Source: a virus (lineage: Duplodnaviria; Heunggongvirae; Uroviricota; Caudoviricetes). Taken from it: a DNA stretch of 40,095 bases. Both the position numbers and the translations under genes were made by a program. Under the pieces are notes generated by a model. It searched no databases. It was not told the origin of the DNA and saw only the letters and a program-made list of their open reading frames with translations. Below, piece by piece: positions 3,151 to 28,955 of the stretch (its first letter is position 1; each line of letters starts with the position of its first letter). Location of the stretch: positions 1 through 40,095 of the IMG/VR virus record IMGVR_UViG_2740892121_000006. One strand, 5' to 3'.

Positions 3151-5613
3151 TCAATTCCCTGTTAATTGCAAAACTTGCTCTTCCAGCTTTTTAACCCTGC
3201 GTCTCATCATCGCAGATTCCAGAATCAGAGCCTCTTCATAACGGATACCGTAACATTCACCAGCCTCGACGGCTTCGCGTACCAGAACCTTTGTCTGTAT
3301 AAGTGGGTAAACTCCTGCAGAATGCTCTTCTTCCGTCACATCCCTGTATTCTGCCGGGGTCTCATTCCACTTGTCATAACAGATAAATGCCAGTCGTGAC
3401 ACATCTATGCCTTCATTCTGAAATACACTGATAACATGCTGCGCAACTGCACCAAAGTGCCATCTTGCTCCGTCTTTACCTTTCACTTCGATCCTGTCAA
3501 GGTACTGGTATGAAACCCATTCCACTCTTTCCCATGCGTCCAGTATTTTCTCATCAATAACCTCTGGAGCAGTCTTGAAACGCGCATCGGACAGCACCGT
3601 AAACGCTGACTGGGTAAATCCCCCCGACCATGCACGACCAGCCAACCCAAGAGAATAAGTATTCGTTTTCGATGGTGTCATGGCTGAATCAGAAAACTGT
3701 ATATATTCTGAATTTCCAGTAGATATTCGAATATTTCCATTTATTAGCGACATAGTGCCTTTAGTATTATCACTATTGAATAATTTCAATTGCGAACTTA
3801 TACCGCCTCCCACAGCCAGAGATACATCGCCTTCAGCAAGCATTCTGAATTTATCTGCAGAAACAAGCGTCTGGTTAGCAAGGTTAAAATATTTAACCCA
3901 CCATTCAAAACGCCCTGACATAGTCCCAACGTACTGACCAAGCGCAGGGACGTGAACAACATTGCTATTTGTAGTGCCGTCTATACTGGAAATACCAGTC
4001 ACCGCTGATGCAGAACTCAGAATATTATTTCTGTCACCCGGATGTTTAATTTCAACAAAGTTCCTGATACACCCTTCCTCGAAGGTAACCACGCCGGAAG
4101 AACTATACATGGGGAATATTGACGCATAATTACTGCGTGCAGCATCTAAGAAACGAATGGTTGTAGATGTCTGCAGATCTCCTGATTCATTTTTCCCATC
4201 ACACCCAGTCATTAGAATATTACTGGCAATATTATTATTTCCCTGAACGGTGACGCCGTGCGCCTGCTTTGCGTCCGATTCAGAGTAATCAACCAGCACA
4301 TTCGAAATCAGGTTACCAGTCCCCTTGCCAACAACTACTGCGGCGTATTTTGGGTTGTTAGCCATTACACTGCTAATGATATTATTCGTTGGTGCAGTTT
4401 CCGTCTCAGTTCCATTGTAAACAACGTGCTGACACTCTTCACCAATAACATTGCTGACAATGTTATATTTTGCTGCTGTTTTAAGTTCCACTGCACCAAA
4501 CTGAGGATAATTTCTGGCTATCACACCATCAATTAGCGTATTTTGCGATGAATCAAAAAGCACACAACCTGCTTTTTTATTATTTGCGAACCCTAAATAC
4601 TCTCCTCTTATATCTCTAACAATGTAACCTGACGGAATACCATTATTCGGATAAGCGATCAAGCTAAATCCTGTTCCTCGCGTATTTGTAAATCTGATAT
4701 TTTTAACCGATACATCATGGCCACCTGAAAATGACACCTGGTGTCCCTGCACACTATCATCTGATTTATTTCCCATAATTGTTAGCGTACTAAGCATGCC
4801 ACCATCGGGCATGTTAAAAACCAGATGATTACCATCTCTGTCATACTGTTTTATCGTTCCCCCACCTGTTCCGTACAAGCCACAACGTGAAAGAGAAACT
4901 AAAGATGTATTGAATACCCCTTCCGGAACAAAAACACTGCTAAACGAATGTAATGATTTTGTAAAAGCATCCTTGTTATCATTTAAGATTCCATTTTGAG
5001 CTCCAAAATCCTTAATGCTGACACCATCACGCATCTTATCCTGGAACGTTCTGTATACCGCTCCAGAACCATACTGAATAAACCAACCAAAACCACCAAT
5101 AACTCCGGCGATTGCAGCATCGACATAATTACGCATTGAGCGATTATTTACAGCGTCCTGCTCAAGTGATGGATCGGCAAGGTTAGATATTCTGTTTTGC
5201 TTTGCATCGTAATATTTTGCAAGCAAAGATGGTTTCATCAATGCACGTCTGAACCACCCAAAACATCGCTGGATCAGCATCGTCAGGTAGTCAAATGCAT
5301 CCTCATGAACTTCGGGGAAAAATTTTCCCTGATTGCGAAGATCAGTCTCCTGCACCACATCAAGCACACGCTCTATCGTGATTCGCCAGCCAGCAGCAAG
5401 CGGCGACGGAAGAACCACTGCACCGCCACTATAAGTTCCCGCCCCTGTTACCGTATAACCAGCATCCAGCACTAGTTTTGTAACGTTACCGTTAAGGTCA
5501 GACACCTGAACAACCAGGTCGGATTTTTTGAAAATACGGAAGGTATACGGAAATGATGTCGTAACGCCGTTACCTGTGTATTCGTTGTGGTCAACTTCGG
5601 TTGAGACCGTCAT
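3151..5613 (-). CDS. Tailspike / tail fibre with T7-fibre-like N-terminal anchor and C-terminal S74 intramolecular chaperone
   Basis: N-terminus YTGNGVTTSFPYTFRIF resembles phage tail-fibre N-domain; long Gly/Asn/Ser-rich central region (beta-helix-like); C-terminus SDARFK...GARWHFGAVAQHV matches endosialidase-chaperone (peptidase S74) pattern; SD GGAG. Confidence 0.8.
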   Translation of the reverse strand: MTVSTEVDHNEYTGNGVTTSFPYTFRIFKKSDLVVQVSDLNGNVTKLVLDAGYTVTGAGTYSGGAVVLPSPLAAGWRITIERVLDVVQETDLRNQGKFFPEVHEDAFDYLTMLIQRCFGWFRRALMKPSLLAKYYDAKQNRISNLADPSLEQDAVNNRSMRNYVDAAIAGVIGGFGWFIQYGSGAVYRTFQDKMRDGVSIKDFGAQNGILNDNKDAFTKSLHSFSSVFVPEGVFNTSLVSLSRCGLYGTGGGTIKQYDRDGNHLVFNMPDGGMLSTLTIMGNKSDDSVQGHQVSFSGGHDVSVKNIRFTNTRGTGFSLIAYPNNGIPSGYIVRDIRGEYLGFANNKKAGCVLFDSSQNTLIDGVIARNYPQFGAVELKTAAKYNIVSNVIGEECQHVVYNGTETETAPTNNIISSVMANNPKYAAVVVGKGTGNLISNVLVDYSESDAKQAHGVTVQGNNNIASNILMTGCDGKNESGDLQTSTTIRFLDAARSNYASIFPMYSSSGVVTFEEGCIRNFVEIKHPGDRNNILSSASAVTGISSIDGTTNSNVVHVPALGQYVGTMSGRFEWWVKYFNLANQTLVSADKFRMLAEGDVSLAVGGGISSQLKLFNSDNTKGTMSLINGNIRISTGNSEYIQFSDSAMTPSKTNTYSLGLAGRAWSGGFTQSAFTVLSDARFKTAPEVIDEKILDAWERVEWVSYQYLDRIEVKGKDGARWHFGAVAQHVISVFQNEGIDVSRLAFICYDKWNETPAEYRDVTEEEHSAGVYPLIQTKVLVREAVEAGECYGIRYEEALILESAMMRRRVKKLEEQVLQLTGN

Positions 5614-7125: not shown

Positions 7126-7142
7126 ACTACCTTTAGGGTAAA
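7126..7142. promoter_or_regulatory. Degenerate copy of the 17-bp palindrome
   Basis: ACTACCTTTAGGGTAAA, one mismatch per arm; overlaps the translation-initiation region of gene A. Confidence 0.35.
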
Positions 7143-7250: not shown

Positions 7251-7267
7251 ATTACCTTTACGGTAAA
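7251..7267. promoter_or_regulatory. 17-bp palindrome (candidate operator) upstream of ant
   Basis: ATTACCTTTACGGTAAA; preceded by TTGAAA-N17-TTATTA promoter-like hexamers on plus strand. Confidence 0.45.
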
Positions 7268-7359
7268 TTTACATTGCACTCCTCTTGTGCCATAGTAATC
7301 AGGCACTGGCAAAATCCAGTGCCGGGATTGGTCTCCCGGATTACTACAGAGGCACATAT

Positions 7360-7379
7360 GCCGCATAAGCGGTTTTTTT
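7360..7379 (+). terminator. Intrinsic terminator-like hairpin plus U-run inside the ant leader
   Basis: GCCGC-ATAA-GCGG followed by TTTTTTT; two further hairpins just upstream (7302-7323, 7322-7339). Confidence 0.4.
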
Positions 7380-7533
7380 ATGTGTAAAGCGCACCTATTC
7401 TATGGTGGGCTGTGTGGGGGCACCGAAAGGTGCGCCGGGTTCCTTTGTAGCCGGTAAGACCAACTCTGCACAGTTCACCACCATCTGATTGGTCTCAGCG
7501 GTGGTGATTAACCTAACTACAAAGGTGATCGCC

Positions 7534-10342: not shown

Positions 10343-13300
10343 CTATTTCATCTGCTCTTCAACTTTATTTAGTAACGGTGATATCGCCCACAGGTTCTGA
10401 AAAGGTAGCATTTTACGGACCGCGTGGGTTTGCTGGCTGTCAAATTCTCCGTTAAGTACACCATTCGCAACCGTCGCGGCATCACCGCCAAGATCAAAGG
10501 TAGGACCAAGTAAAGCACCAATAGCATTACGACTCTGAAACCTTGATACCGGAGGCGCACCAAACATCGCGCCAAGACCAAACCTACCGCCGCTTATGTT
10601 CTCAACGGTATTCAGCGGCTCAGAGAGCCAGCCAAGCATTCCGCCCCGGTCGATCCCCTCTTTCACAAGGTTATTCCAGCTGTAGTCGATATCGCGACCG
10701 CTTAACTTCTGTTTCATCATATAGACCATTGAGCCAAGCGCAATCGTGCCAAGCGCACCAAGATAGAATGCAGCATCGCCCTGCTGGATACCAGATACTA
10801 GCACCCTGTTATGCTGTGCGAAGATAAACGTTTTGAACTGCGTGATCATCTTCCAGCCTTCTTTACTAAAAAACAGCGGTGTATCACCTACGCCAGGCGT
10901 TACAATCACTGAGTCTACATCTTTCAGCACTGCAGACTGGAAAATCTCTCTAGCGAAACGGTCATCCCACAGATGACTATGCCCGGTTAACAGCCCGTCC
11001 ATATCCTCTCCGTGCTTCCCGAATTGCTCCCCGATTCGGCGCAGAACATCTTCATTGATGCCGACCTGTGCCATCTTCCGCATTTCACTTTTGGAGAGCG
11101 TGCCACCAGCAGAAACTTGGCGAGCCGCGTCAAGTATCCTCGACTGCACTATCATCCCGGACCATGATTTAAGTGCGCTGTTCCACTGATTCATCAGCGT
11201 CCAGTTACCGAATTTCTGCGTCATCCAGTTCAGACCTCGCTCAGCGGCGCTTCTCCGGCTATAGGGGTCAGTAAGATCCGCTATAGCCTTTGTACGCGTA
11301 GACAGGACATAATCAAGCCCAACGGCCATTTCTCGCAAATCCCTGGTTGCAATTTTCACTGAGTCCATATTTTTAAGCATGCTTACCATTGGTCCGAGAG
11401 ATTTTCTCAGGCCATGCTGCATCATCGGTCGCATCAGATCAGTTGCAGCGGAGACAGTCATTCCACCAAGCAAACGGAGGAAGTTAATATTCCTAGCAAC
11501 TCGCCCGGCACGAACAAAGAAACTGCGTGGATCTTGAGGTGCACCGTAAGTACCAAGCAGTCGATCACGCATAGCCGTAATATCCCTAATATCAGCCTCC
11601 CGTTGCTTCTCAAGAACTGCACGTCGTTTAGGTGTTTTAGCCTCTTTTATTAGCCGGGTATATTCCTCACTAACCTGACGGATTTGCTCCCCCATATCTT
11701 TACGGCCAAACTGCGCAGTCAGCTCAATTTCTGGTGCCACCTGCCGGAGATAACTTTCCATGATGTAGTTAACATCTGATTCAAGAAAATCTTCTATACG
11801 CTCATCAGGAATAAGCAGCGTTCTGCTTTTAGTGAAACCAGCCCGACCAACGAGTTTCTCTGGGATAATATCGGCTGGTACAAGCCCGGAAGGTGCGCCT
11901 ATTATTTTATTCACGATCTCGTCAGCAGCGTCCTCTGCTTCCTCTCGGGATAGAGGCTCCATCTGCTTCAGTGCTCGTTCGCGGCTTGCATTCAGCCTTG
12001 TGGTTGAATTTGCCCGTTTTTGCAGTCGGCGAAGCTCAGAACGATATTTCCGTGGATTATCCAGCAACTCCATATGGCGCTGATAGACAGGAAGCTCACT
12101 CTTTGCCTGCGCTATATCATCAAGGCGTGTTTTAAGGTCAGAGCTTTCTTTCATCATTCTTGCCTGAAGTTTTTCTGATGAAGTCTCGGCCAACTCTTTT
12201 TCTATTCTTGTAAGACGCGCCTGTGTGTCAGTCTCCTGAGATATAAGCTTATTTCGTTTATCCAGTTCTTCCATGAGTAGAATTTTTTTACCAGACCATT
12301 TCTCCGCTTCAGCGATTTCACTAGCGAGAGCATCAGCGCGCGGTGCCGATTCCTCTGCAGTTTTTAGCAATGAATTTATCCTTTCAATTCGCTGACCTGC
12401 TTTGTCAGCACCTTTGGCACTAATCCCTTGTATCCAGTTGGCAATTCGCCCTCTGAATTCAGTGCGGTCGGAAAGTATCTTATCGAACTTATAAATGCGG
12501 GGAAGATAACTTTTCGCCGTCACGACATCGATATCCTCAGGAAGGATCCCCAGTTCCTGCATACGGGCTTTTGTGGTCTCGAAAATGGGGCGGATTCTGG
12601 CGGCTGCTTGTGAAACCTCAGGAATATCACTCTGATCACCACGGCGCATAGCCATGCCAACAGCTTCATTGAAATCAATAAAGTTCATCCTCTTCACGCC
12701 GCGGGCGCTAACAGATTTGCTGTACTGCTGGTAAGCATCACGAGTGGCTTCCATCTGCTTATAAAGCATGGCGTCGTATTGCTTAATCTTAGTCTCGACT
12801 GCCGTAAACGTAGCCAACCCCTCATCATTTTTGGCGAAGAAATAGTTATTTTCGGCAAGCTGCTGGTTAATCTGACGGGAGACAAGAGATGGTGATTGAG
12901 CCAAGCGGCCAGCAGGAGTGACACTCAACGTTTTGTTAGCAAGTCCAAGTCCAGCGAGCTGTTCCTGATCGAGTGTGGTATTGAAAACCTGAGCTGCACC
13001 AATGCTTTGAGGAGAATCCATACCTCGCAAATGATTACCTACTGAGTTAACCACTGCCTCGCGCGCGCTAGGTCCAGCAAGTAGCTGTGCACCAGCACCA
13101 AGGATCCCACCAACGAGAGCATCAACAACAACGTTCGATACGCTCTCCATCGGTGAGCGAGCTTCCTGAGTGGCCTGTAATGCGGCTTCTGATACTCCCC
13201 CACCAGCAGCATTCGCCAGGGCAAAACGCCCTGCCGTCTCAGCAATACTTCCTCCACGCGCTACCGCCCCTACAGGGATAAACATTGCAGCCACATTAAC

Positions 13301-13732
13301 CGGGTCTATCATTCCCATTGCTAAGCTTGAAATAGTACCAGCACCACCCATTTCAGATAGATATTCTCTATCTGTTCTTTGCTTATCGATTCGATGTTTA
13401 ATTGCCATTGTTTCTTCATGCGAACCGGAGTTGATAAACGAATCTGCAAAATCTTCATAGCCTTTAATATCTGCTGCATCGTTATCAAATGGGTTATATC
13501 CTTCAACCCTGTCAAACTGACTGAAAGGAGCACTGGCAATAAAGCTACCCAGCGTGTTATCTATACGAAATGCTGCTTGTCTAGACCTTTGAACGCGTTG
13601 ATCACTGGTAAATGGGTTCACAGCAGAAAGCAAAGAAGGTGTTTCCATATAGAAATTACTGTCATCAGGTGCTGCTATTTGCTGAATATCCTCGCCAAGC
13701 AACTCTTTAGGATCCTGTTCATATATCGGCAT
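10343..13732 (-). CDS. Large internal virion / ejection protein (1129 aa)
   Basis: Gly/Ala-rich N-terminal region, long central coiled-coil (residues about 450-620); position equals T7 gp16 slot. Confidence 0.45.
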   Translation of the reverse strand: MPIYEQDPKELLGEDIQQIAAPDDSNFYMETPSLLSAVNPFTSDQRVQRSRQAAFRIDNTLGSFIASAPFSQFDRVEGYNPFDNDAADIKGYEDFADSFINSGSHEETMAIKHRIDKQRTDREYLSEMGGAGTISSLAMGMIDPVNVAAMFIPVGAVARGGSIAETAGRFALANAAGGGVSEAALQATQEARSPMESVSNVVVDALVGGILGAGAQLLAGPSAREAVVNSVGNHLRGMDSPQSIGAAQVFNTTLDQEQLAGLGLANKTLSVTPAGRLAQSPSLVSRQINQQLAENNYFFAKNDEGLATFTAVETKIKQYDAMLYKQMEATRDAYQQYSKSVSARGVKRMNFIDFNEAVGMAMRRGDQSDIPEVSQAAARIRPIFETTKARMQELGILPEDIDVVTAKSYLPRIYKFDKILSDRTEFRGRIANWIQGISAKGADKAGQRIERINSLLKTAEESAPRADALASEIAEAEKWSGKKILLMEELDKRNKLISQETDTQARLTRIEKELAETSSEKLQARMMKESSDLKTRLDDIAQAKSELPVYQRHMELLDNPRKYRSELRRLQKRANSTTRLNASRERALKQMEPLSREEAEDAADEIVNKIIGAPSGLVPADIIPEKLVGRAGFTKSRTLLIPDERIEDFLESDVNYIMESYLRQVAPEIELTAQFGRKDMGEQIRQVSEEYTRLIKEAKTPKRRAVLEKQREADIRDITAMRDRLLGTYGAPQDPRSFFVRAGRVARNINFLRLLGGMTVSAATDLMRPMMQHGLRKSLGPMVSMLKNMDSVKIATRDLREMAVGLDYVLSTRTKAIADLTDPYSRRSAAERGLNWMTQKFGNWTLMNQWNSALKSWSGMIVQSRILDAARQVSAGGTLSKSEMRKMAQVGINEDVLRRIGEQFGKHGEDMDGLLTGHSHLWDDRFAREIFQSAVLKDVDSVIVTPGVGDTPLFFSKEGWKMITQFKTFIFAQHNRVLVSGIQQGDAAFYLGALGTIALGSMVYMMKQKLSGRDIDYSWNNLVKEGIDRGGMLGWLSEPLNTVENISGGRFGLGAMFGAPPVSRFQSRNAIGALLGPTFDLGGDAATVANGVLNGEFDSQQTHAVRKMLPFQNLWAISPLLNKVEEQMK

Positions 13733-16479
13733 TATTTGCCCCCTGCGTATATATTGCTCGGAAGGTAATTGGCTGAACCATAACCGAATGGTTTGGTCAG
13801 ATCTGGAGGAGTATATCCATCTTTATTGCTGAACTGCGGCAGCGGATTGCCTTCTCTCCGCACTCTAGCCTCATCAACACGCTGTTGCTGGAACTGAATG
13901 GTTTGCCTGTACATTGGAGATGTCAGCTGATCCGGCTTGAAACGAACAGGGAGACCATTTTCTCCAATATAATTTCTCGGTTCTATCGCTCCGTTTGCGT
14001 CAGGCTGTAAAACCATAACAGCATAACTCCTATCCCTTGCCGTAAGGCCATCAGAAACAAGTATTAAGTCCGTATCACTGCGAGGACCGCCAAAGGATTT
14101 TGATTTAAGCTCGCGTTTTTCCTGCTCCCACTGCCCCTGTATCCAGTTACCAGCACCATTATTTACTCCGTACAATGCCTCAGGTGCATACTTCATAACC
14201 TCTGCTTTGCCATTAACCGTAGAAACTCCCCAGGTGGTTCTGATCATGGCATTGGTCATTTTCTCAGCCTGTTCTGCATCGCCACCTGTCTGTACAAAGT
14301 TAGCATCGTAAATTGTCTGGTAATCTCGCTGATAGGCCGCATTTGATTTTCCTGGATCGGTAATATCCGGAGACCACGAACCAAAGGAAGTCAGACTGCT
14401 GGCGTTATTTTGTGCAGCAGTTGCCCTCGCCGCGACATATTTTTTGTCTCGCATGGCAGTGGAAAGCATCTGTTTCATTCGGTCATCCTGTTGGAACACC
14501 TGGCTGTAAGCCATATCAACAGCCTTATCCTCCGGCACGCCAGCGCGGGAATAATCGTAAACCTTGCCGTAAAATGCCATCGTACTTTTATCAAGTGTTG
14601 CCGCTGCCGCCGGATTATTATCGAATAACTGACCGTAGAATTTTGCCATCGGGACAACCAGCGCAGGATCTCTTGATGTTGCTCCACTGTTAAGCATTGT
14701 TTTAACCTGAGTTGGTATCATGCCGCTTTTAGTTGTGACGGTGACCAGTGTATTGATGCTCTGCGGATCAGATATGGAAAACGAAGGCGCGATATCCTGC
14801 GCGAAATAACGGTCTACCGCTGCCTGATTGTTTTTGTCGTTCGGGTCCAGCGGGAAGTTATTTTGCATTGAAGACACGAACCTGTTTCTTCCCTGCTGAA
14901 TCTCCCACTCCCTATCCATCTCTTTAAATTTGGCCTGCATTTTCTCCCAGCGTTGCTGGTTAGCTGCAAATCCAGGAGCGTTTGGATCCTGTGGACGTAA
15001 ACGTTCAAGAATGTCTTGTCGTCCTTCTGGAGTGAGGTCTTTAGCGGCACCAATGACACCTCCATATTGTATCTGCGCCTGCATATCCTTCCACTTCATA
15101 GCGCCAATGCGCGGACCATTGGCCCGGATAAAATCGTCCTCAGAAGGTAACTTCTCAGGTTTCAATCCTTCATCAAGGGCTGAATATGCATCTTTAACTA
15201 CGGTGCTAAGCTGGTCCGCATACTGCTGGCGGTACTGATTTCTCAGCTCATTAGCCTGCCTCAATGCCTGTATTTGCATTTGAGGGCTCATAGCATCAAA
15301 TGCCGCATTGCCTGTATAACGCTTAGGTGAATCAAGGTTAGTTAGACCAAGGGCTGCCGAGATACCAGTTTCAAGCTGTTCGGTGCTATAAGGCATACTG
15401 CCATTTTCGTGTTTAATAATCCCAGCACATAAAGCAGCTAGTGTCTTTGGGTTAGAGATATCAAGCTGATCATTCTCCCCAACACCAAGCTCACCACACA
15501 ATGCCCTAATATAAGCATCAGTATTATTACCATCACTAGCCGGAGCATAGCGATTAACAATCTCGCTAACGGTGTCATAGCCTTGACGCTGGTAAGACAA
15601 CATATTTTTACCCAACGCGCGGATTCCATGCTCAGGGGTAGCAAACGTTGCAAAACGTCCATCGCTACCGATCTGACCTTCCCACGGGTTAGATTTGCTC
15701 GCTTCAATATTACCAGGGTTATTATTACGTAAACCACGAGCATCCAATGAATTACCATGTGATATTGCACGACTCACACCATCAAGATCCCCTGGCTCTC
15801 CATTAACCTGAAGAAACTCGTTGTATTTTTGAGCGATATTTCCTATCCATGCTTGCTGCCCCATTTGTTCCTTGAGCTGAGTTTTCTGCTGAACACGCCA
15901 CTCATCAGGAAGCCCATGCGCATCAGCGTATTGATCAATAGATTCAAATCGCTGCTTGGCTAAATCGACAAATGCTTGGTTATCGCTATATAGCCCCGCA
16001 GACTGAGTGACAGCCAATGCATTTCCTGACAAATACGTTTGATCTTGGAATTGCTGAAACTGCCCAACTTCATATCGACGTGCCTGATTGTAATAAGACT
16101 GCATAGACTGCTGGAGTTGAAAGGATAATTTATTCCTTTCCTCACTTTCAGGAATTGAACCTAATAATGCCTGAGCCCTTTCCTGCATATTTTTCATAAC
16201 AGCGTCACTCTGACCAAGAGCGTTTTTACCCTGTTTAGAAATCAGCCCACTTTCAGGGTTGTTAATCTGGTCATCTGCAAATTGGTTAAATTGCAGTAAC
16301 GCCTCCTGGGCCATAGCAACATTCGCTTTCTGCCTGGCTTCACCATATGCCACCGCATACTGATCTGCGACATTCGCCAGCACCTGACCTGCTTGAGGAA
16401 CATCGAAGATCTGAAAACCACCGGTTTGCACACCACGACTTTGCACCTGACGTCCGGATGTAGTAGGAACAACAGGCAT
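13732..16479 (-). CDS. Internal virion protein with putative cell-wall hydrolase-like motif region (915 aa)
   Basis: Conserved-looking block RGLRNNNPGNIE...GRFATFATPEHGIRALGKNM; ATGA overlap with downstream gene; position equals T7 gp15 slot. Confidence 0.45.
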   Translation of the reverse strand: MPVVPTTSGRQVQSRGVQTGGFQIFDVPQAGQVLANVADQYAVAYGEARQKANVAMAQEALLQFNQFADDQINNPESGLISKQGKNALGQSDAVMKNMQERAQALLGSIPESEERNKLSFQLQQSMQSYYNQARRYEVGQFQQFQDQTYLSGNALAVTQSAGLYSDNQAFVDLAKQRFESIDQYADAHGLPDEWRVQQKTQLKEQMGQQAWIGNIAQKYNEFLQVNGEPGDLDGVSRAISHGNSLDARGLRNNNPGNIEASKSNPWEGQIGSDGRFATFATPEHGIRALGKNMLSYQRQGYDTVSEIVNRYAPASDGNNTDAYIRALCGELGVGENDQLDISNPKTLAALCAGIIKHENGSMPYSTEQLETGISAALGLTNLDSPKRYTGNAAFDAMSPQMQIQALRQANELRNQYRQQYADQLSTVVKDAYSALDEGLKPEKLPSEDDFIRANGPRIGAMKWKDMQAQIQYGGVIGAAKDLTPEGRQDILERLRPQDPNAPGFAANQQRWEKMQAKFKEMDREWEIQQGRNRFVSSMQNNFPLDPNDKNNQAAVDRYFAQDIAPSFSISDPQSINTLVTVTTKSGMIPTQVKTMLNSGATSRDPALVVPMAKFYGQLFDNNPAAAATLDKSTMAFYGKVYDYSRAGVPEDKAVDMAYSQVFQQDDRMKQMLSTAMRDKKYVAARATAAQNNASSLTSFGSWSPDITDPGKSNAAYQRDYQTIYDANFVQTGGDAEQAEKMTNAMIRTTWGVSTVNGKAEVMKYAPEALYGVNNGAGNWIQGQWEQEKRELKSKSFGGPRSDTDLILVSDGLTARDRSYAVMVLQPDANGAIEPRNYIGENGLPVRFKPDQLTSPMYRQTIQFQQQRVDEARVRREGNPLPQFSNKDGYTPPDLTKPFGYGSANYLPSNIYAGGK

Positions 16480-21313: not shown

Positions 21314-21751
21314 TTAACCAGTTACTTTTGAGCGGATCGGATACGGCGTATTGGCATCAACATCAAGACTGATACCAGCAGTGAATTCGCCAGCCGTTAG
21401 TGGGCCAGTTGCGACGGAGTAGTTAACACGCAGATATCGCTGAACACCGGCAGGCACCTTTGCAGAAACAACTCGTTTACCTGCTGTCAGGGCGGTCTTT
21501 GCCAGTGCGCCACTATCATAAATAGTGGTCCATGAGCTGTTATTCTCACTCGTCTGCAACTGGATGTTTACAGTTGCATCACCGCTTGCCGCGGCGGCTG
21601 TGTTAACCAGCGCCCAAAACTCAAGCGGGTAACCCACGCCGATATCACGACGTTTTCCGTCAATTGGACCGAGATCGATTACGTCAGTAGAAGCCGCGGT
21701 ATTCGTAACCGCCTGAGCTTCGGAGAACATCAACAGTTTGTCGGTGATCAT
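21314..21751 (-). CDS. Possible capsid decoration / Ig-like protein (145 aa)
   Basis: Ser/Thr/Ala/Val-rich beta-type composition, immediately after major capsid gene and a stem-loop. Confidence 0.35.
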   Translation of the reverse strand: MITDKLLMFSEAQAVTNTAASTDVIDLGPIDGKRRDIGVGYPLEFWALVNTAAAASGDATVNIQLQTSENNSSWTTIYDSGALAKTALTAGKRVVSAKVPAGVQRYLRVNYSVATGPLTAGEFTAGISLDVDANTPYPIRSKVTG

Positions 21752-21802
21752 CTTCTTTCTCCATTAGTGGGTCTGTTACGACCCACAGGTTAATAACAGG
21801 CG

Positions 21803-22795
21803 TTACACCACGCGGGCTTCTGTTTCCAGAAGCGCATCAGTTTCACGGATTGGTACACCACGGAATGAAGTCCACCACTCGCCTTCTGTCTCTTTTACGC
21901 TGATCGCCAGAGATGTTTTCTCCAGAGATTGCAGATCAAGAGCCTGGCCTACAGTGCGGTTCATGTAGAACACCGGGCGACCCATGCCACGATTTGGAAT
22001 GCGATGCAGTGCTTTAACCATCAACTTCGCAATATTTGCGGCAGAGGAAGGTTCTGAAAGATTGCTGACATCGATGTTTGCAATGCGAACAACATAACGC
22101 CAGTCACGCAGAGCAAGTCCGTTGTCCCATTTGTAATGGGTACGGTAGCCTTCGTACTTGCCGCCATTCGCATCTTCCAGTGTCACCTGGCCTTTATCTT
22201 CCATCTGGATGCCAGCCTTCTGCCCTTTCGGGAAGATGCCATGCACGGTGTTTTCGCCCCAAACCACTAACCAGATTGAGGTGTTATCTGTACCCGTGCC
22301 ACCAGCATCAATGATGTTCTGAGCATTACCCGCAGACAGGCTGGAATAGCGGGAGGACAGTCCCATAAACTGCTGAGGGTTAACGCTGGAATCACCATAA
22401 AACAGTGTCTGCGCCATCTGCTGATTCATCGCTTCAATAAATGCGCGGTCTTCAGACAGGCGGAATTCGGCGGTATTACCGTTCAGATCAGCCAGTGACT
22501 TATCGACTTCAGCATAGGTTTCCAGCATGCCAACGGAATCGGTGACCTGCACTGTGGTTGATTTGCTTGGCTGTACACCATAGTTCAGCAAACGCCAGGT
22601 AGCTGAAGGTAAACCAGAACGAATGGTGGTTCGGTGTCCGGTAGGAAGGTTCCCTTCGACAAAAGGCATATCCTGAAGGATCGGGTTAGTTTGACCGAGA
22701 AGCTCGATAATCTTATCGACTTTCCCGTTTGGATCGACGCGCTTACCCCAGTCAGCCAGCGTTAGCGCAGTTAAGCCTTTAACAGCCATTGTCAT
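21803..22795 (-). CDS. Major capsid protein
   Basis: 330 aa, directly downstream of scaffold gene; size typical of podovirus HK97-fold coat proteins. Confidence 0.65.
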   Translation of the reverse strand: MTMAVKGLTALTLADWGKRVDPNGKVDKIIELLGQTNPILQDMPFVEGNLPTGHRTTIRSGLPSATWRLLNYGVQPSKSTTVQVTDSVGMLETYAEVDKSLADLNGNTAEFRLSEDRAFIEAMNQQMAQTLFYGDSSVNPQQFMGLSSRYSSLSAGNAQNIIDAGGTGTDNTSIWLVVWGENTVHGIFPKGQKAGIQMEDKGQVTLEDANGGKYEGYRTHYKWDNGLALRDWRYVVRIANIDVSNLSEPSSAANIAKLMVKALHRIPNRGMGRPVFYMNRTVGQALDLQSLEKTSLAISVKETEGEWWTSFRGVPIRETDALLETEARVV

Positions 22796-22803
22796 TTCCT
22801 CTC

Positions 22804-23499
22804 TTATTTGCCATAGAGCACTTCGGCCGCACTACGCTGGCCTTCATTACCACCGGTGACCATGCCATCTTCAGACATCGCCTTTCCGATTTTCACGAAC
22901 GTTTTGACCAGATCAGGGTGATTACCCAGCCCGGTGGTGTTCAGATATTCTTTGAGTTCAGGTGTCCCGAACTGGTCAAGCGCACGCTGTGCGGCGCTAA
23001 GGTTAGAAATCAACTTGTCGCCACCGATTTCTTTGTCAGCTTTTACATCCGCAGCCCACTGCTCGGTTGTTTTCTGCCAGGCTTCTGCCTGGCGCTGCTG
23101 AACACCTGCCAGAATCTTCGGATAAGCATCAACCAGCTTTTGCGCTTGCTCGTTGGTCAGGTTTAGTTCTCGCGCCACCGGCTCGAATTCCTTCAACGCT
23201 TCTGTATCCAGCTCTACGCCTTCGGCAGCCTGAAACTCGTACTTCTCCGGCGCACCCTCCGGTTTATCGCCGCCCTTTTTTTCATCCTGCTTATCGTTTT
23301 CAGGCTTTTTGTCATCAGCAGGTTTATCGCCATCAGCAACAGGTTGTGGCTTATCACCTTCCTGTTGTGATGGTTCACCAACTGGAGCAGGGGTATCACC
23401 TGCAGGCGCTGACGGTTCTGACGCAGCCGGAGCTGCTCCACCATCGACTGGTTGCTCATTGCAAAGACGGCGATACAGCAAACGCTCAAATAAATTCAT
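22804..23499 (-). CDS. Scaffolding protein
   Basis: Pro/Ala/Asp/Lys-rich low-complexity N-terminal half, helical C-terminal half; between portal and capsid; ATG 23499 with SD AGGAG. Confidence 0.6.
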   Translation of the reverse strand: MNLFERLLYRRLCNEQPVDGGAAPAASEPSAPAGDTPAPVGEPSQQEGDKPQPVADGDKPADDKKPENDKQDEKKGGDKPEGAPEKYEFQAAEGVELDTEALKEFEPVARELNLTNEQAQKLVDAYPKILAGVQQRQAEAWQKTTEQWAADVKADKEIGGDKLISNLSAAQRALDQFGTPELKEYLNTTGLGNHPDLVKTFVKIGKAMSEDGMVTGGNEGQRSAAEVLYGK

Positions 23500-23501
23500 G
23501 A

Positions 23502-23798
23502 TCACTCCTGTTCACTGGCCTCTTTGGCCATCTTCAAATACTGTTCAGGGCAATGCGCCATAACGCGCTGAAACAGTTCCAGCGCCAGATTGCGTTGCCC
23601 CTCATTAAATGCCATTGCCATAGCGTCCATCGGTGAGATAGCGGAAAACACACGGCCTTTCTCCAGCACCGACCAGACAACGCGACGCCCCTGTTCACTG
23701 CTCATGACAAAGCGAATGTCATCAATTTCACGCTGCGCCATGTCACGTTGCTTACGGGCGTTTTCTTCTTTCAGTTGATCGTCTTCGTAATCAGTCAT
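23502..23798 (-). CDS. Small acidic protein (98 aa), head-assembly context
   Basis: ATGA overlap with portal stop; coiled-coil-like charged sequence. Confidence 0.45.
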   Translation of the reverse strand: MTDYEDDQLKEENARKQRDMAQREIDDIRFVMSSEQGRRVVWSVLEKGRVFSAISPMDAMAMAFNEGQRNLALELFQRVMAHCPEQYLKMAKEASEQE

Positions 23799-25474
23799 TG
23801 TGATTGCCCACCCTGACCACTAACTGCATTCGCCATAGCTGACAAAACACTCGGATCCGAAGTTTTAGCTTCGCTTAGCGTCTTGGCGCCCTGTGCCGCC
23901 GCCATCCCCATCGCCATCATTTGTTGCTGCTGTTGCTGCTGTGCCCGTTGCTGGCGAGCCTGCTCAACCTGTTCCTGCGGAACAATGACGGTTGGAGACA
24001 CTCCGGACATATCAGCGAATGCATCGATCGCCTGATCAACGTTGAGTTTGTCGAGAGCTTCTGGTTTCGCTTGCGCAAGTTGACCAATGAAGTTGACCGT
24101 AGACGCCAGACTGGACAGGCCGATAGACTTCTGCGCCTGAGCCATGACGGAAATGTATTCGACCTTCAGGGGCATACCTTCCATCACGTCTGGCGGTGGC
24201 GGCAGCATGTTTTTACGCACCATCATTGAGAAAGCGCGGTCAATGAGAGGATTAAGACATTCGTCGTTCAGACGCTCCAGAACCGGCCCCAACATCAGAA
24301 GTTTTTCTTCTTTCATTTCGATCACTGCTTCAACAGGCATCGAGCGGGTATTGATGTTCTGCAACATCATGAACAGATCGACAAAGTAGGCGCTGTTAAT
24401 GATTTGACGAGTGTCCTGAATGTCTGCTACCAGATCTGCTGTACTGGGGTTAACCAGATAAGCAGGCCTGAAGCCATCCTGACCAGTAATCTGATCGATA
24501 TACGTGATGTCGCCAGGAAGAAGGGAGGCGCGCTGATTCTTGAGGGAAGTCGGAGCAACCATCGGCGGATTGGTGGCTTTATCAATCAACTGCGACTTGC
24601 GCTTCTGGAGAAGTTGCAATGCCTTAACAGGTCCAAGCGCCAGCATACCCGGGCATGATGATCCATAAACATCTTCGCCATTAACTTCCCAGCGCGGAGC
24701 CATAATTGGAAACTCATCAAATCCGGACTCACGCAACAACTTGTCGTTATCGCCACCAACCTCGTAATAAACCGATTTGAATGGCTTGTTCTTGCTATCC
24801 AGCTTCGATGTATCGCGGTCAATGTTCGGGTAAACCGAATGCATCACGTCAATCCACTTCTCGTAGGTGCCGCTTTCCCACATGCTTTTTACGGATTCGC
24901 TGACGTTATTTAGCCCGAACTCCTGAACAAGCTGACGAACAGTCATAGAGAACTTGCGAAAACAGGTGTCCACACTGCCACGAGGTGAGTTAGCCAGGTA
25001 GTAACTGCCTATCGGGAATGGCATTGTGCGAATGATGTCCTCGTCATCCTCCAGCACCGCCATTGCACCAGTGCTGTATGTGCCGAGGCTTCCGTATAAC
25101 TGCGGAAGAGACTGGTAGAGATTCGACTTATTGAACATATCGTTCATGCGGTTCTGCACCGCCTCGAGCCACAACTTAACAGGACCATAATCCATCATTT
25201 CAGGATCTGGCGTAGCCAGGCGAAACCACGGACGCGCGGGGCTTGTGATGCCTGACATCATGCCGCTGGCGAGAGTGCGCGCCGCCATAGTCCCGGTCGA
25301 ATCAATAATGCGTGTATTGCGTCGATCGTTACGGTTGACCTCAGAAGTCAGAAAGCGGGAACCACGCGGGTTGATGTAATCACTCAACTCGCGCCAGTGC
25401 GGCTCAAACGACTGACGCTCGCTTTCAAGTTGTGCGAACTGTTTGTTCAATCGCTCTTTAGTTGTTTCCGCCAT
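23795..25474 (-). CDS. Portal protein
   Basis: 559 aa; position after terminase and before scaffold; C-terminal Gln/Ala/Gly-rich tail. Confidence 0.7.
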   Translation of the reverse strand: MAETTKERLNKQFAQLESERQSFEPHWRELSDYINPRGSRFLTSEVNRNDRRNTRIIDSTGTMAARTLASGMMSGITSPARPWFRLATPDPEMMDYGPVKLWLEAVQNRMNDMFNKSNLYQSLPQLYGSLGTYSTGAMAVLEDDEDIIRTMPFPIGSYYLANSPRGSVDTCFRKFSMTVRQLVQEFGLNNVSESVKSMWESGTYEKWIDVMHSVYPNIDRDTSKLDSKNKPFKSVYYEVGGDNDKLLRESGFDEFPIMAPRWEVNGEDVYGSSCPGMLALGPVKALQLLQKRKSQLIDKATNPPMVAPTSLKNQRASLLPGDITYIDQITGQDGFRPAYLVNPSTADLVADIQDTRQIINSAYFVDLFMMLQNINTRSMPVEAVIEMKEEKLLMLGPVLERLNDECLNPLIDRAFSMMVRKNMLPPPPDVMEGMPLKVEYISVMAQAQKSIGLSSLASTVNFIGQLAQAKPEALDKLNVDQAIDAFADMSGVSPTVIVPQEQVEQARQQRAQQQQQQQMMAMGMAAAQGAKTLSEAKTSDPSVLSAMANAVSGQGGQSQ

Positions 25475-25488
25475 TTCAATGACTCCGG

Positions 25489-25695
25489 TTACTGACCAAG
25501 CAGCGTTTTACCGCTGGTATTAGCGGTTGATGTGTCGCCCTGAGAACCGGTAAGCAGCGTAGAACTACGACCAGCAGCAGCGCGACGGCGACGTGTTTCT
25601 TCGTCGCGGGCATCAACAACGGCGACATCCTGCTCCTGTGGTGCTGCCTGAACTTCTGGTGTTGCAGGCACTGATGGTGAGCTACCCATGCACAT
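25489..25695 (-). CDS. Small acidic/Pro-rich protein (68 aa)
   Basis: SD GGAG 8 nt upstream of ATG 25695; preferred over overlapping frame 25476-25715 whose translation is Cys/His/Arg-rich. Confidence 0.35.
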   Translation of the reverse strand: MCMGSSPSVPATPEVQAAPQEQDVAVVDARDEETRRRRAAAGRSSTLLTGSQGDTSTANTSGKTLLGQ

Positions 25696-25784
25696 ATCAA
25701 TGACTCCGTACGCAATTAAATTATTACCAATTTAACCACATATGTTTTATTTATCGTAGAAGGTTGACATTTAACGCGCTAATT

Positions 25785-25801
25785 ATTACCTTTCAGGTAA
25801 C
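25785..25801. promoter_or_regulatory. 17-bp palindrome (candidate operator) with TTGACA hexamer upstream
   Basis: ATTACCTTTCAGGTAAC, identical in 16/17 positions including spacer to the site at 5717; TTGACA at 25764-25769; half-site ATTACC at 25723. Confidence 0.45.
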
Positions 25802-26122
25802 TAAAGAGTTCATTCCGGTTACTAACCTGACTGGCTTGTCGTTAAATTGAACAGGTGGAGTGAGCTTTTATTTTGAGCAGTACGGCGTATGGCACATGCG
25901 CCGATAGCGGTCTGGATACGTTTAAGGGGCACCCTCCCTTGCTCGGGCAAACGAACCAGGTAGCCGGAATGTGCAAGTCGAGCGGTTTTATTCCGCGCAC
26001 GGGGATTCACCATCCCGGCGATTCGGTGTGACGCCTCGGAAGAGACGAGGGTACAACGATGAGAGCATTTATGGAGCCGCGACAAAGTGTGGCGCCTTAA
26101 CAGGCTAAGTGCTCTCAGCGTT

Positions 26123-26199
26123 GTGGCATTAGCTCAGTTGGACAGAGCAACCGCCTTCTAAGCGGTTGGTCGCAGGTTCGAATCCTGCATGCCACGCCA
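26123..26199 (+). tRNA. tRNA-Arg (anticodon UCU, reads AGA)
   Basis: Cloverleaf read by eye: acceptor GTGGCAT/ATGCCAC, D-arm AGCTCAGTTGGACAGAGC, anticodon loop CUUCUAA, T-arm GCAGGTTCGAATCCTGC, discriminator G, encoded CCA. Confidence 0.85.
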
Positions 26200-26242
26200 G
26201 AATCACGCCTAAGGACCGTGATGCCAGAAGTTCCAGGGGCTT

Positions 26243-26286
26243 GGCGGTGATGGTTTCCCTTGAAGGACTATCACCGCCCTTTTTAC
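26243..26286 (+). terminator. Rho-independent terminator after tRNA
   Basis: About 10-bp stem GGCGGTGATGG / CTATCACCGCC followed by CTTTTT. Confidence 0.65.
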
Positions 26287-26362
26287 AGCAGGACGCCATT
26301 GCGATGACTTCATGCTGTAAACCAGTACAGCCACGGAAGGCATAACTCATTGCTTCCAGTTC

Positions 26363-26386
26363 GCCCGGTTCGCCGGGCATTTTTTT
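26363..26386 (+). terminator. Terminator-like hairpin abutting the RBS of gene 26398
   Basis: GCCCGG-TTCG-CCGGGC then ATTTTTTT, 11 nt before SD AAGGTGAG. Confidence 0.5.
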
Positions 26387-26397
26387 AAGGTGAGATT

Positions 26398-26754
26398 ATG
26401 AACGACCAGCAAATCGAAAAAGAAATCGTTGAGAAAGGCAAAACCGCTCCGCGAGTTACGCCTCAATATATCGAAAGCATCATTCTTGAAGAGCATTTCT
26501 TTACTGCTTATGACGGCATTCGTGCTGCCAATATGGGCGTTGGCGATTCATGGACAGCGCATAAATCTACAGACCTCCTGACTTTCTGCGTATTGGTACT
26601 GAAGAATGGCTTCACCGTCACCGGAGAGAGTGCCTGTGCAAGTCCGGAAAATTTTGATGCAGAAATTGGTCGGAAGATTGCCCGGCAGAATGCTGTAAAC
26701 AAAATCTGGATGCTCGAAGGTTACTTGCTGAAGCAGAAGTTAAGCGAGCAATAA
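26398..26754 (+). CDS. Conserved small phage protein of unknown function (moron)
   Basis: 118 aa, strong SD AAGGTGAG; opposite strand to flanking terminase/portal genes. Confidence 0.5.
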   Translation: MNDQQIEKEIVEKGKTAPRVTPQYIESIILEEHFFTAYDGIRAANMGVGDSWTAHKSTDLLTFCVLVLKNGFTVTGESACASPENFDAEIGRKIARQNAVNKIWMLEGYLLKQKLSEQ

Positions 26755-26844: not shown

Positions 26845-28320
26845 TTAAGCATAAGGGTCATAATCCGTTATGGCCCTTCCCTGCTGGCTTTGCTGTCCTG
26901 GTATATTTATGCGTTTCGAGACCGGGAAAGCAAACGTCAGCAGTAGCGCATCGCCTTTACCAGGAGAACGCCCAAGACGCTCTTTGATATCTTCCTTCGG
27001 TTCGATAACGATTTTACCGTCCACACGAACTTTGTACTCTGCCGCAGACAGGTCGTCCGCTGTTTCCTGGTCATCCAGCATGCCGCCCAGCCTCAGCCAT
27101 GTCTTGCATGAGTTGAACATCTCCCCACGCTTGTTGAGCATCTGCGGGTCAGTAGACGCACCACCGAACGGAACAAGTTGCCATGTGCGCCCCCAACCAT
27201 CACCGATTGACTTCAGACCGGTACCGTAACCGAAGTCGATGAACACCGCGTCAGCCTGATACTGGTCTTCAAAGTCAGCGATACGCTTCGCCATAATCAG
27301 ATCGTCGGTAGTCTTGTTGCCAGTCCACAGCACCTTACTGTGTAGCCCCTGCCGCAGGTATATCACCGCGTCATCAACGCCTGAATATGCCGGGTCAACA
27401 CCGATTATCACCGGAGCATGCGCCACCTGCGCAGCGGTTACCACCCGTTTCATTGCCTCATCAGTAAGACCGGTAGGGATAAACTGCAATTCAGATGCAT
27501 CAGGGAATATGCCGCGCACACGGATTTTAACGAAGTCGCTGTCTTCCCCGTAGTCATCGACCCATTTCTGCAACTGCTGTTTGTTAGTGCCTTCCACCGT
27601 CCGGCTGTCAATCTGCGCAGTTTTCCAGCGGTGTTTATATTTGCGGAAACATTCGCGGAAACGCCCGGTGTTACGTGTAGGGTTTCCGAACGCCACCCAG
27701 ATAATCTCAGTGTCTTCGTCCGTAAGCGCACCCTCAGCAACTTCCCACACCAGATCCGCAATGTTCGACGCTTCATCGAATACCACGATGATGCGTTTGC
27801 GCTCGTTGTGTAGTCCGGCGAATGCCTCAGTGTTGTGCTCAGACCAGGGGATTGCGTCAGCTCGCCACCGCTTGTCGTGCCCAGGATCATTGCTGTACAT
27901 CGCGGTAGCGGTACAGGTAAACCAGTCTTTCGTGATAGCAAGGTTCGACCACTTGATAATTTCCGGCCAGGTCTTCGTTCGTAGCTGGTTGTCGGTGTTG
28001 GCGGTCACCACGACCTTACAATCCTCGCAAGTGGACATGCCCCAGTTGATCAGCATTGAGATGAATGCGGATTTACCAATACCGTGACCAGAAGCACGTG
28101 CCAGCATAAGCGGCTGATATCGCGTCTCTGGATTCTGCAGGTGATCACGTATCTCTCGGAACGCATCGGCCTGCCACTGACGTGGACCGGTGGCATGTGC
28201 CAGTTCAGTACCCTCTTCCCCCCACGGGAACGCATAGAGGGCATAGCCAAGCGGATCGTGAGTGAACCCTGCAATATCCTCGATTAACTGCTCTTCAGGA
28301 GATAACGCTGTATCTGTCAC
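26845..28320 (-). CDS. Terminase large subunit
   Basis: ATPase motifs (Walker A-like GHGIGKS, Walker B-like VVFDEASN) and C-terminal nuclease-type acidic motifs (IIGVDPAYSG); overlaps terS stop. Confidence 0.85.
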   Translation of the reverse strand: MTDTALSPEEQLIEDIAGFTHDPLGYALYAFPWGEEGTELAHATGPRQWQADAFREIRDHLQNPETRYQPLMLARASGHGIGKSAFISMLINWGMSTCEDCKVVVTANTDNQLRTKTWPEIIKWSNLAITKDWFTCTATAMYSNDPGHDKRWRADAIPWSEHNTEAFAGLHNERKRIIVVFDEASNIADLVWEVAEGALTDEDTEIIWVAFGNPTRNTGRFRECFRKYKHRWKTAQIDSRTVEGTNKQQLQKWVDDYGEDSDFVKIRVRGIFPDASELQFIPTGLTDEAMKRVVTAAQVAHAPVIIGVDPAYSGVDDAVIYLRQGLHSKVLWTGNKTTDDLIMAKRIADFEDQYQADAVFIDFGYGTGLKSIGDGWGRTWQLVPFGGASTDPQMLNKRGEMFNSCKTWLRLGGMLDDQETADDLSAAEYKVRVDGKIVIEPKEDIKERLGRSPGKGDALLLTFAFPVSKRINIPGQQSQQGRAITDYDPYA

Positions 28321-28910: not shown

Positions 28911-28955
28911 CATAACCACCGTGGTAATAGTTACCGTTGTGGTAATAGTACCATG

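Follow-up and report, generated by a model that had tools for sequence, protein, structure and literature searches.

A conserved pseudoknotted RNA with an optional tRNA-Arg(UCU) cargo in a phiV10/epsilon15-type prophage and in other temperate phages of enterobacteria

Background

Several phage RNAs are known that are linked to tRNAs, either by their shape, by the way in which they are released or by their location. The C4 RNA of P1 and the CI RNA of P4 are closed by an acceptor-like stem and are excised from a longer transcript by RNase P, and the stable RNAs called species 1 and 2 of T4 are co-transcribed with tRNAs and released by tRNA-processing enzymes. GOLLD and ROOL, for which profiles have been taken from Rfam (PMC12286853), are RNAs of phages and prophages that contain multiple pseudoknots and often adjoin tRNAs, which in the case of GOLLD are sometimes found inside a linker of the RNA itself (PMC12286853; PMC5737381). 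They are large RNAs of more than ~500 nt that assemble with themselves into multimers, and they are not known to have a protein partner. A different kind of phage RNA element is the put RNA of HK022, an antiterminator that works in cis through RNA polymerase; its copy putL lies directly downstream of a repressor-controlled early promoter in a lambdoid phage (PMC9378689). Here we describe a locus that shares single features with each of these systems. It is contained in the virus record IMGVR_UViG_2740892121_000006, the 40,095 nucleotides of which are referred to as the window, and it consists of a tRNA-Arg(UCU) gene that is preceded by a conserved, structured RNA element, hereafter called the core.

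The window is a prophage of E. coli that belongs to the phiV10/epsilon15 type (genus Uetakevirus). Over the 921 bases that surround the locus, a sequence search gave 98-99% identity with phiV10, TL-2011b and their relatives, and a prophage of E. coli SCU-387 matched at 100%. The locus occupies the gap between the portal gene (23795-25474, minus strand, PF12236), together with the small gene upstream of it (25489-25695, minus strand), and the large terminase gene (26845-28320, minus strand).

Results

The stretch upstream of the tRNA is of particular interest because of its distribution. When positions 25800-26125 of the window were compared with distant sequences by BLAST, the last ~245 nt were found to recur at 70-83% identity in unrelated phages, namely in lambdoid phages (mEp460, cdtI, Stx2c-converting phages, Ayreon and 2H10), in P1/P7/D6-type phages, in SPN1S-type Salmonella phages and in Klebsiella phages, the matches falling in one place per phage record; 590 plasmid records contain the element as well. 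The conservation of 25882-26122 is far above chance. Its first part is the core, 176 nt at 25882-26057 on the plus strand, and a covariance model built from the core alignment (R1) matches the window at this place only, with 144 bits and an E-value of 2e-43 (the calibration was shortened and the E-values are therefore rough), the next best match scoring 9 bits. Of 5426 complete E. coli genomes 1844, about a third, contain the core, some of them in as many as four copies, and none of the matches listed in these genomes has an annotated feature under it. In species-representative genomes, one per species, it was detected in 23 stretches, 22 of which are from enterobacterial genera; the remaining one is a 1.7-kb contig labelled Bacillota. 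As to a possible host homologue of the core, the distant search of the E. coli genomes returned the element itself only.

For closer study 139 full copies were gathered by pattern scans and BLAST, a sample that is biased towards copies retaining the two motifs used in the scans. As many as 92 of these loci have the core without a tRNA, 27 carry a tRNA-Arg(UCU) behind the hairpin module that follows the core (module A, see below), and in 18 the tRNA stands before the core. Since the element thus occurs without a tRNA, after a tRNA as in the P1-like phages, or directly before the terminator of a convergent gene, it constitutes an independent and widespread RNA family of which the tRNA is one optional cargo. 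A preliminary description, made from the letters of the window alone, had recognized a structured non-coding stretch at about 25830-26120 and had treated it as the upstream region of the tRNA. The stretch does correspond to a conserved structured RNA, the true limits of which are 25882-26122, and its definition by the tRNA has to be given up in view of the 92 tRNA-less loci. The same description would have taken an empty Rfam search, along with RNA-seq in which the tRNA is the only stable transcript, as a sign against the stretch. In fact Rfam 15 (4227 families) gave no match to 25882-26122 at the gathering score and noise only at E-values up to 10 (a nematode snoRNA model with 15.7 bits, on the opposite strand), and the mEp460 copy likewise had no match; searches of the window and its relatives returned tRNA, C4 and isrK only. 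Yet the covariation reported next shows that the structure is real, so that such a test would mislead.

The structure was drawn from the covarying columns of an alignment (A2) of 41 copies that are less than 96% identical to each other. All of its elements lie on the plus strand: the helices P1 (25883-87/25899-903), P2 (25911-15/25956-60), P4 (26002-05/26013-16) and P5 (26034-38/26046-50, with the loop GAAGAGA), the variable hairpin P3, and a pseudoknot (26008-11/26025-28) in which the P4 loop CACC pairs with a downstream GGUG, the pair being AACC/GGUU in four sequences. P1, the base of P2, P4, P5 and the pseudoknot covary. Over the 41 sequences 97.4% of the cells form standard pairs and 13 of the 29 pairs have changed on both sides. 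No shuffle out of 500 came up to the observed figures, neither in the number of paired cells, nor in the two-sided changes (counted as pairs or as cells), nor in the covariation score, and pairing fell to 28-46% when the partners were slid by 1-3 columns. A candidate second pseudoknot (25892-97/25969-74) would join the P1 loop GCACAU to a perfectly complementary AUGUGC, both of which are invariant. Altogether 59 of the ~176 core positions are invariant, whereas P3 and the tip of P2 differ freely from copy to copy, in length as well as in sequence.

That the plus strand is the RNA follows from its frequent G-U pairs, which would be A-C mismatches on the opposite strand (the two stand at 4:20 in 22 sequences, at 30:94 in 41 and at 143:157 in 14). 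The element also points in the same direction as the cI or ban gene next to it. Folding of the single sequence, with z scores of -2.4 for the plus and -2.8 for the minus strand, is similar on both strands, hence uninformative, and was discarded as evidence.

No reading frame stays open across the 41 representatives, five of which have none at all, and the core varies in length from 154 to 188 nt by insertions and deletions that are not multiples of three. Public records nevertheless place hypothetical open reading frames (ORFs) over the RNA unit or the tRNA, such as PhiV10p04 (26129-26380 of the window, minus strand), gp37 and gp36 of mEp460 (L004, 2943-3311 and 3353-3496) and gp54 of Tyrion (L154, 1601-1762); these are probably not genes.

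In the layout of the family P5 is followed by ACAAC and then by module A, a hairpin which in the window comprises 69 nt (26054-26122, plus strand), has the stem CAACGAUGAGAGCAUU/AGUGCUCUCAGCGUUG around a variable tip and abuts with its 3' end exactly on the 5' end of the tRNA. We found 37 distinct versions of the module A stem in which both strands change together (for instance GAGAGC/GCUCUC, AAGAGC/GCUCUU and AAAGCGC/GCGCUU), with tips of 31-317 nt, and all 37 close with the same junction of GUU to GUGG. The slot behind the junction holds either a tRNA or a tRNA-shaped module, in most loci other than those with the tRNA an RNA with the acceptor-like stem GUGGUGA...UCACCAC. Such modules contain two flanking hairpins with the complementary loops GCUGAU/AUCAGC, and their middle part is variable. 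They are derived from tRNAs, because the slot of one locus (L091, 1077-1203, minus strand) still scores as a tRNA: it gives a 127-nt match of 43.9 bits with normal acceptor, D and T arms, in which a 64-nt insert replaces the anticodon arm.

The slot is followed by a trailer, in the window at 26200-26242 of the plus strand, with a conserved hairpin (AUCACG 26202-07/CGUGAU 26217-22) that is also present 3' of the cargo in the lambdoid and epsilon15-group relatives, and by the terminator T1 (26243-26284, plus strand; stem 26243-26278 and CTTTTT in the terminator scan), which is the conserved end of the RNA unit. In lambdoid as in epsilon15-group contexts the unit finishes with this hairpin and T1, and terminators homologous to T1 end it in other lineages, including SfV and mEp460. 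The structured RNA amounts to ~240-320 nt in the window and some relatives have more than 600 nt of modules. Judged from these comparisons, a conserved 5' core and a conserved 3' trailer with terminator frame a cargo slot. Core and hairpin module of the window are one copy of a modular RNA family of temperate enterobacterial phages that is undescribed in Rfam 15 and in the open-access literature.

Upstream of the core a promoter of the sigma-70 type can be read from the sequence of the plus strand (25764-25792; -35 TTGACA at 25764-25769, a 17-nt spacer and -10 TACCTT at 25787-25792), with transcription predicted to start near 25800. A consensus promoter scan of the window made no call here, as the -10 matches at 3 of 6 positions only. 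Both hexamers and the 17-nt spacing are conserved in 31 distinct variants of the epsilon15 group, while the sequence of the spacer varies. The -10 is overlapped by the palindrome TTACCTTTCAGGTAA (25786-25800), an operator of the phage repressor; in the form ATTACC-N5-GGTAA it does so in all 31 distinct relatives, and the equivalent site of epsilon15 is annotated as a repressor binding site. Allowing at most one mismatch, TTACC-N5-GGTAA occurs 15 times in the window as against 0.74 copies expected, the copies starting at 5486, 5718, 7127, 7252, 8311, 25786, 28913, 28931, 31933, 31995, 33897, 34234, 34282, 34994 and 35056. One repressor thus seems to control many scattered promoters, like C1 in P1. 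Because the operator overlaps the -10, is kept in the relatives, has 15 copies in the window and corresponds to the annotated site of epsilon15, the plus-strand unit would be under direct repressor control; no transcription of it is expected in the lysogen, and derepression should turn it on. Two of the operator copies form a pair at the start of the small terminase gene (28913-28945). Between promoter and core lies a leader of ~80 nt (25801-25881, plus strand); compared by eye with relatives, its 3' part appears to resemble the 3' half of the family's hairpin module.

The tRNA-Arg(UCU) itself (26123-26199, plus strand) is 77 nt long, with the anticodon TCT and an encoded CCA, and was called by ARAGORN as well as by Rfam (RF00005, 73.3 bits as compared to a gathering score of 29). 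It is a standard argU-like tRNA and is over positions 7-77 86% identical to the host tRNA-Arg that is present in all 5426 genomes, from which it differs in its acceptor stem GUGGCAU/AUGCCAC (26123-26129/26190-26196). The GUGG of this stem recurs in the tRNA-shaped modules which replace the tRNA in the relatives.

AGA accounts for about 2 per 1000 codons in E. coli K-12. In the 37 long ORFs of the window it makes up 6.8 per 1000 codons and 11.6% of the arginine codons, about three times the K-12 figure. AGA is concentrated in tail genes, with 13 AGA among the 38 arginine codons of ORF 3151-5613 (minus strand), and AGA and AGG together are concentrated in the long tail or injection-type ORFs 3151-5613 and 10343-16479 (both minus strand); neither codon occurs in the portal gene, the terminase gene or the ORFs at 21314-23505. 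For the tRNA itself the usual explanation is reasonable, namely that it helps with the decoding of a rare codon in the late genes.

As far as can be judged from the genomes, the element is part of what would be a repressor-controlled early transcript in every lineage, be it lambdoid, P1-like or epsilon15-like. The surrounding genes are different: within ~3.5 kb upstream and 4 kb downstream of the 139 loci no protein is shared across the contexts, and the ORF clusters are specific to the lineages. In mEp460, the cI product of which is a typical repressor with a helix-turn-helix and an S24 peptidase domain, the core lies ~50 nt downstream of a promoter (TTGCAT/17 nt/TATCTT) that itself follows the cI terminator. 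This promoter has the position of the leftward early promoter, and in it the operator type TTGC-N7-GCAA, which is present between cI and cro as well, occurs in two exact copies. The P7 core is located in the ban operon, the operator of which is annotated as C1-controlled, and no terminator stands behind it. More generally, nothing but the core is present in the P1-like phages, at a distance of 17 nt from the tRNA that precedes it and of about 100 nt from ban, which follows. In some lambdoid phages the core is directly followed by the terminator of a convergent gene, without any cargo.

SfV is without the core. The leader from which its early-left genes follow (L150, 2190-2470) retains module A, T1 and, between them, a tRNA-shaped module, and it contains a small pseudoknot-like hairpin, ACCACCGAGCCUGAAGUGGUGAAAAGACAGGCA, which is found 5' of the core in the loci L028 and L083 too. 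Of the core, epsilon15 possesses no more than the first ~55 nt, to which the 3' half of T1 is fused (L002, 3028-3131). The break falls at the motif UUCCCUUGAUGCU, which in its relative SPN9TCW (L003) is found both in the P2 loop and in the T1 loop. Most of the core has apparently been deleted from epsilon15 along with module A and the tRNA, the deletion lying between two copies of UUCCCUUGAUGCU.

A fourth and distinct context is provided by the Klebsiella phage SopranoGao (Lastavirus), which has a full core of 116 bits after its lysis genes near the end of the genome (L152, 1438-1603). In mEp460 we further noted an inverted repeat of ~20 bp, ACAAAACAGAGAAGAGCA...GTTCTTCTCTGTTTTGT, between T1 and the first early-left gene (L004, about 3437-3520), which may be a processing site. 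Finally, the window encodes an isrK RNA (74.7 bits) directly 5' of a C4 antisense RNA (78.6 bits) at 7303-7485 on the plus strand, C4 taking up 7398-7485. This pair represents an immunity module of the P1 type (immI-like) within a prophage of the epsilon15 type; two operator copies (7127-7141 and 7252-7266) lie beside it, and in mEp460 an isrK/C4 pair is located about 2 kb from the core (L004, 706-894).

T1 is followed in the window by a segment of different standing (26285-26397, plus strand), in which a hairpin H1, a GGAAG/CUUCC hairpin directly 5' of the terminator T2 (26363-26386; stem 26363-26378 and ATTTTTTT in the terminator scan), T2 itself and the ribosome binding site AAGGTGA precede a gene for a protein of 118 amino acids (26398-26754, plus strand; PF13876, E 1.7e-34; 'Gp49 family protein' in RefSeq). 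This is the sole protein gene on the plus-strand unit. H1 and the T2 stem show compensatory changes in an alignment of 12 variants, and the segment is conserved in the epsilon15 group only, including epsilon15 itself, which has lost the core. We therefore read it as a putative lineage-specific leader of the Gp49-family gene, separate from the widespread RNA. The preliminary description had grouped its hairpin-rich part (26287-26386) with the rest of the locus; the hairpins and T2 are borne out, the membership in the core RNA family is not. The further elements it had listed, that is the tRNA-Arg(UCU) between portal and terminase on the opposite strand, the promoter with its operator palindrome over the -10, the two intrinsic terminators and the lack of an ORF with coding character, are all confirmed by the results given above.

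Discussion

The explanation that we favour takes the region as a single early transcription unit of a phiV10/epsilon15-type prophage, in which a new class of phage RNA is combined with a tRNA cargo and the core acts in trans as a stable RNA; we consider this explanation as a whole about as apt to be right as to be wrong. Of its starting points, the anatomy of the sequence, the conservation of the core, its paired structure and its strand, the modular slot and a promoter context under operator control are observed. In the lysogen, a repressor bound to the operator over the -10 would shut the sigma-70 promoter. Derepression would then yield a transcript of ~485 nt, from about 25800 to 26284, with the ~80-nt leader, the 176-nt core, the 69-nt module A, the tRNA-Arg(UCU), the trailer hairpin and T1 in this order. 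RNase P would be expected to cut at 26122/26123, where all 37 versions of module A have a U at -1 and a G at +1. The cut would set free the tRNA and, 5' of it, a structured RNA of ~320 nt the 3' end of which is defined. The tRNA would supplement AGA decoding for a phage with AGA-heavy tail genes, whereas the core would most likely, soon after derepression, act in trans on a macromolecule of the host or of the phage. That the RNA has a function of its own is suggested by its independent spread, the tRNA-less copies, the many invariant unpaired positions and the variability of the peripheral hairpins.

Several observations weigh against an action in trans. No family of partner proteins is common to the contexts, and no convincing antisense complement of the P2 loop was found in the window. 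The core must be dispensable for epsilon15, which has lost most of it. In every lineage it stands upstream of co-oriented genes in cis, which would fit a cis-acting role equally well, and outside the P1 group terminators are located between the core and these genes. Moreover, the longest invariant blocks, including the candidate second pseudoknot, are partly fixed by the search patterns and by their nature allow no covariation signal; four copies that were retrieved by BLAST via their 3' halves do retain the invariant blocks, the P1 loop motif included. It also has to be held against a new class that a description of the RNA or of its conserved strings was looked for in the open-access literature only, where none was found. 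Within this literature and Rfam 15 the core RNA is undescribed.

More tentatively, and with the balance of our judgement inclining against it, we consider that the element may be a modular RNA 'carrier', the pseudoknotted core of which would be made immediately upon derepression and would present interchangeable tRNA or tRNA-derived cargo. Without the help of a dedicated protein it would act on the machinery by which the host transcribes, translates or surveys its tRNAs. In this capacity it could be an antiterminator that consists of RNA only and has no relation to put, or else a decoy or an assembly linked to tRNAs, common to three unrelated temperate lineages; we hold this equally tentatively.

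Could the core instead act in cis? As a nascent leader RNA it would modify RNA polymerase or termination such that early transcription passes T1 and T2, or T1 and further terminators in the lambdoid relatives, and arrives at the downstream genes, in the manner of put and yet unrelated to it. The lambdoid relatives lend themselves to this idea, since the core there comes first behind the repressor-controlled promoter that follows cI and so occupies the place of putL (PMC9378689). Terminators separate the core from the co-oriented early genes in the window, in mEp460 and in the locus L075, where a convergent gene with its terminator intervenes, and T2 abuts on the ribosome binding site of the Gp49-family gene. 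In addition, the first operon ORFs of mEp460, SfV and L075 match no Pfam family, and no N-type antiterminator was recognized among them. However, there is a single copy per phage, with none for the rightward operon, and R1 has no match in HK022. The downstream modules and T1 are kept by SfV without the core, T2 and the Gp49-family gene by epsilon15 without the core, and in P7 there is no terminator after the core to be overcome. In the window, read-through would serve one gene of 118 amino acids and then run antisense into the terminase gene. All this considered, we regard a cis-acting leader as rather unlikely.

A specific version of the action in trans is that of an early anti-defence decoy, where the core and its tRNA-like cargo titrate or block a host nuclease or a sensor of tRNAs or phage RNA. 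Early, repressor-controlled expression would suit such a role, as would the tRNA-derived cargo with its conserved acceptor-like stems and replaced anticodon arms and the spread of the element among unrelated phages in the manner of an accessory gene. On the other hand, no defence system or target is linked to the element, the proposal is drawn from context, and the tRNA-shaped modules are devoid of the anticodon arm, which is the usual target of anticodon nucleases. We therefore think it doubtful that the core serves as a decoy.

That the stretch is a plain 5' leader of the tRNA, a spacer for its transcription or processing with no function of its own, agrees with its being co-transcribed with and abutting on the tRNA, but is contradicted by the distribution of the core, two thirds of the sampled copies of which (92 of 139) have no tRNA while others stand directly before the terminator of a convergent gene without any cargo. 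To explain the tRNA-less copies as decaying remnants is opposed by their conservation, and neither the 59 invariant positions nor the five covarying helices would be expected of a spacer, so that this explanation is very improbable. Least of all do we believe in a small protein gene (such as the 87-amino-acid ORF at 25822-26085 of the minus strand) or a binding or recombination site at the level of the DNA, even though hypothetical ORFs have been annotated over the unit in phiV10 and over the core in mEp460 and a similar minus-strand ORF exists in 82 loci, because no frame is open across the representatives, the insertions and deletions ignore the triplet, and the compensatory changes in the helices, with G-U tolerated on one strand only, speak for an RNA.

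Readings of the transcript as a known type of regulatory RNA were tried as well. A boxA/boxB (nut-like) site was considered on account of UGCUCUUU in the 3' strand of module A and the GAAGA-containing P5 loop, and was set aside because the strand is paired and covaries, the motif is lost in other versions and no N-type protein was recognized. A T-box-like reading, for which an AGA in the P5 loop would be required and a UGGC would have to meet the 3' end of the tRNA, rests on motifs of 3-4 nt and is a lead only. With respect to a riboswitch, the distance from core to T1 is 200-600 nt and no alternative pairing was seen.

If our preferred explanation of a trans-acting RNA with a tRNA cargo is correct, intensively studied phages such as P1, the lambdoid Stx-converting phages and the relatives of epsilon15 and phiV10 share a common structured RNA that has gone unannotated, which would be present in roughly a third of the complete E. 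coli genomes and over which several records place hypothetical ORFs. The element could explain how early terminators are read through in lambdoid phages without a recognized N-type gene, and it could offer a model in E. coli for the ornate, tRNA-linked phage RNAs GOLLD and ROOL. The tRNA, the operator with its promoter and the terminators are conventional parts and should not be over-read. P1 and lambdoid lysogens are easily induced, mutants in RNase P and in RNA polymerase are available, and compensatory mutants are suggested by the alignment.

How, then, does the element relate to the described phage RNAs? The species 1 and 2 RNAs of T4 are from an unrelated, virulent phage and are without repressor control. 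The tRNA-shaped modules of the family, with their stem GUGGUGA...UCACCAC, look like the C4 and CI RNAs of P1 and P4; the models of the C4 clan (C4, c4-2 and c4-a1b1) match neither the locus nor the mEp460 modules, and in the window C4 is found at 7398-7485 only. Like put of HK022, the element is located directly behind a repressor-controlled early promoter and before terminators, both in the window and in mEp460. It differs in that put has ~70 nt, two stem-loops and a left and a right copy, as opposed to a single-copy, pseudoknotted core of ~176 nt, and R1 run over the whole HK022 genome reaches 7 bits at best (E 0.31). GOLLD and ROOL, lastly, are alike in being phage-borne and pseudoknotted and in their association with tRNAs, a tRNA or a tRNA-derived RNA being here inside the unit. 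The core, with ~176 nt, is much smaller, and the whole unit of the window has less than 500 nt; the GOLLD and ROOL models give no match to the element, and its hosts are Enterobacteriaceae. On the features tested the element thus belongs to none of the families compared; the nearest of them are the C4 and CI RNAs of P1 and P4 by the logic of processing, put of HK022 by position, and GOLLD and ROOL by context.

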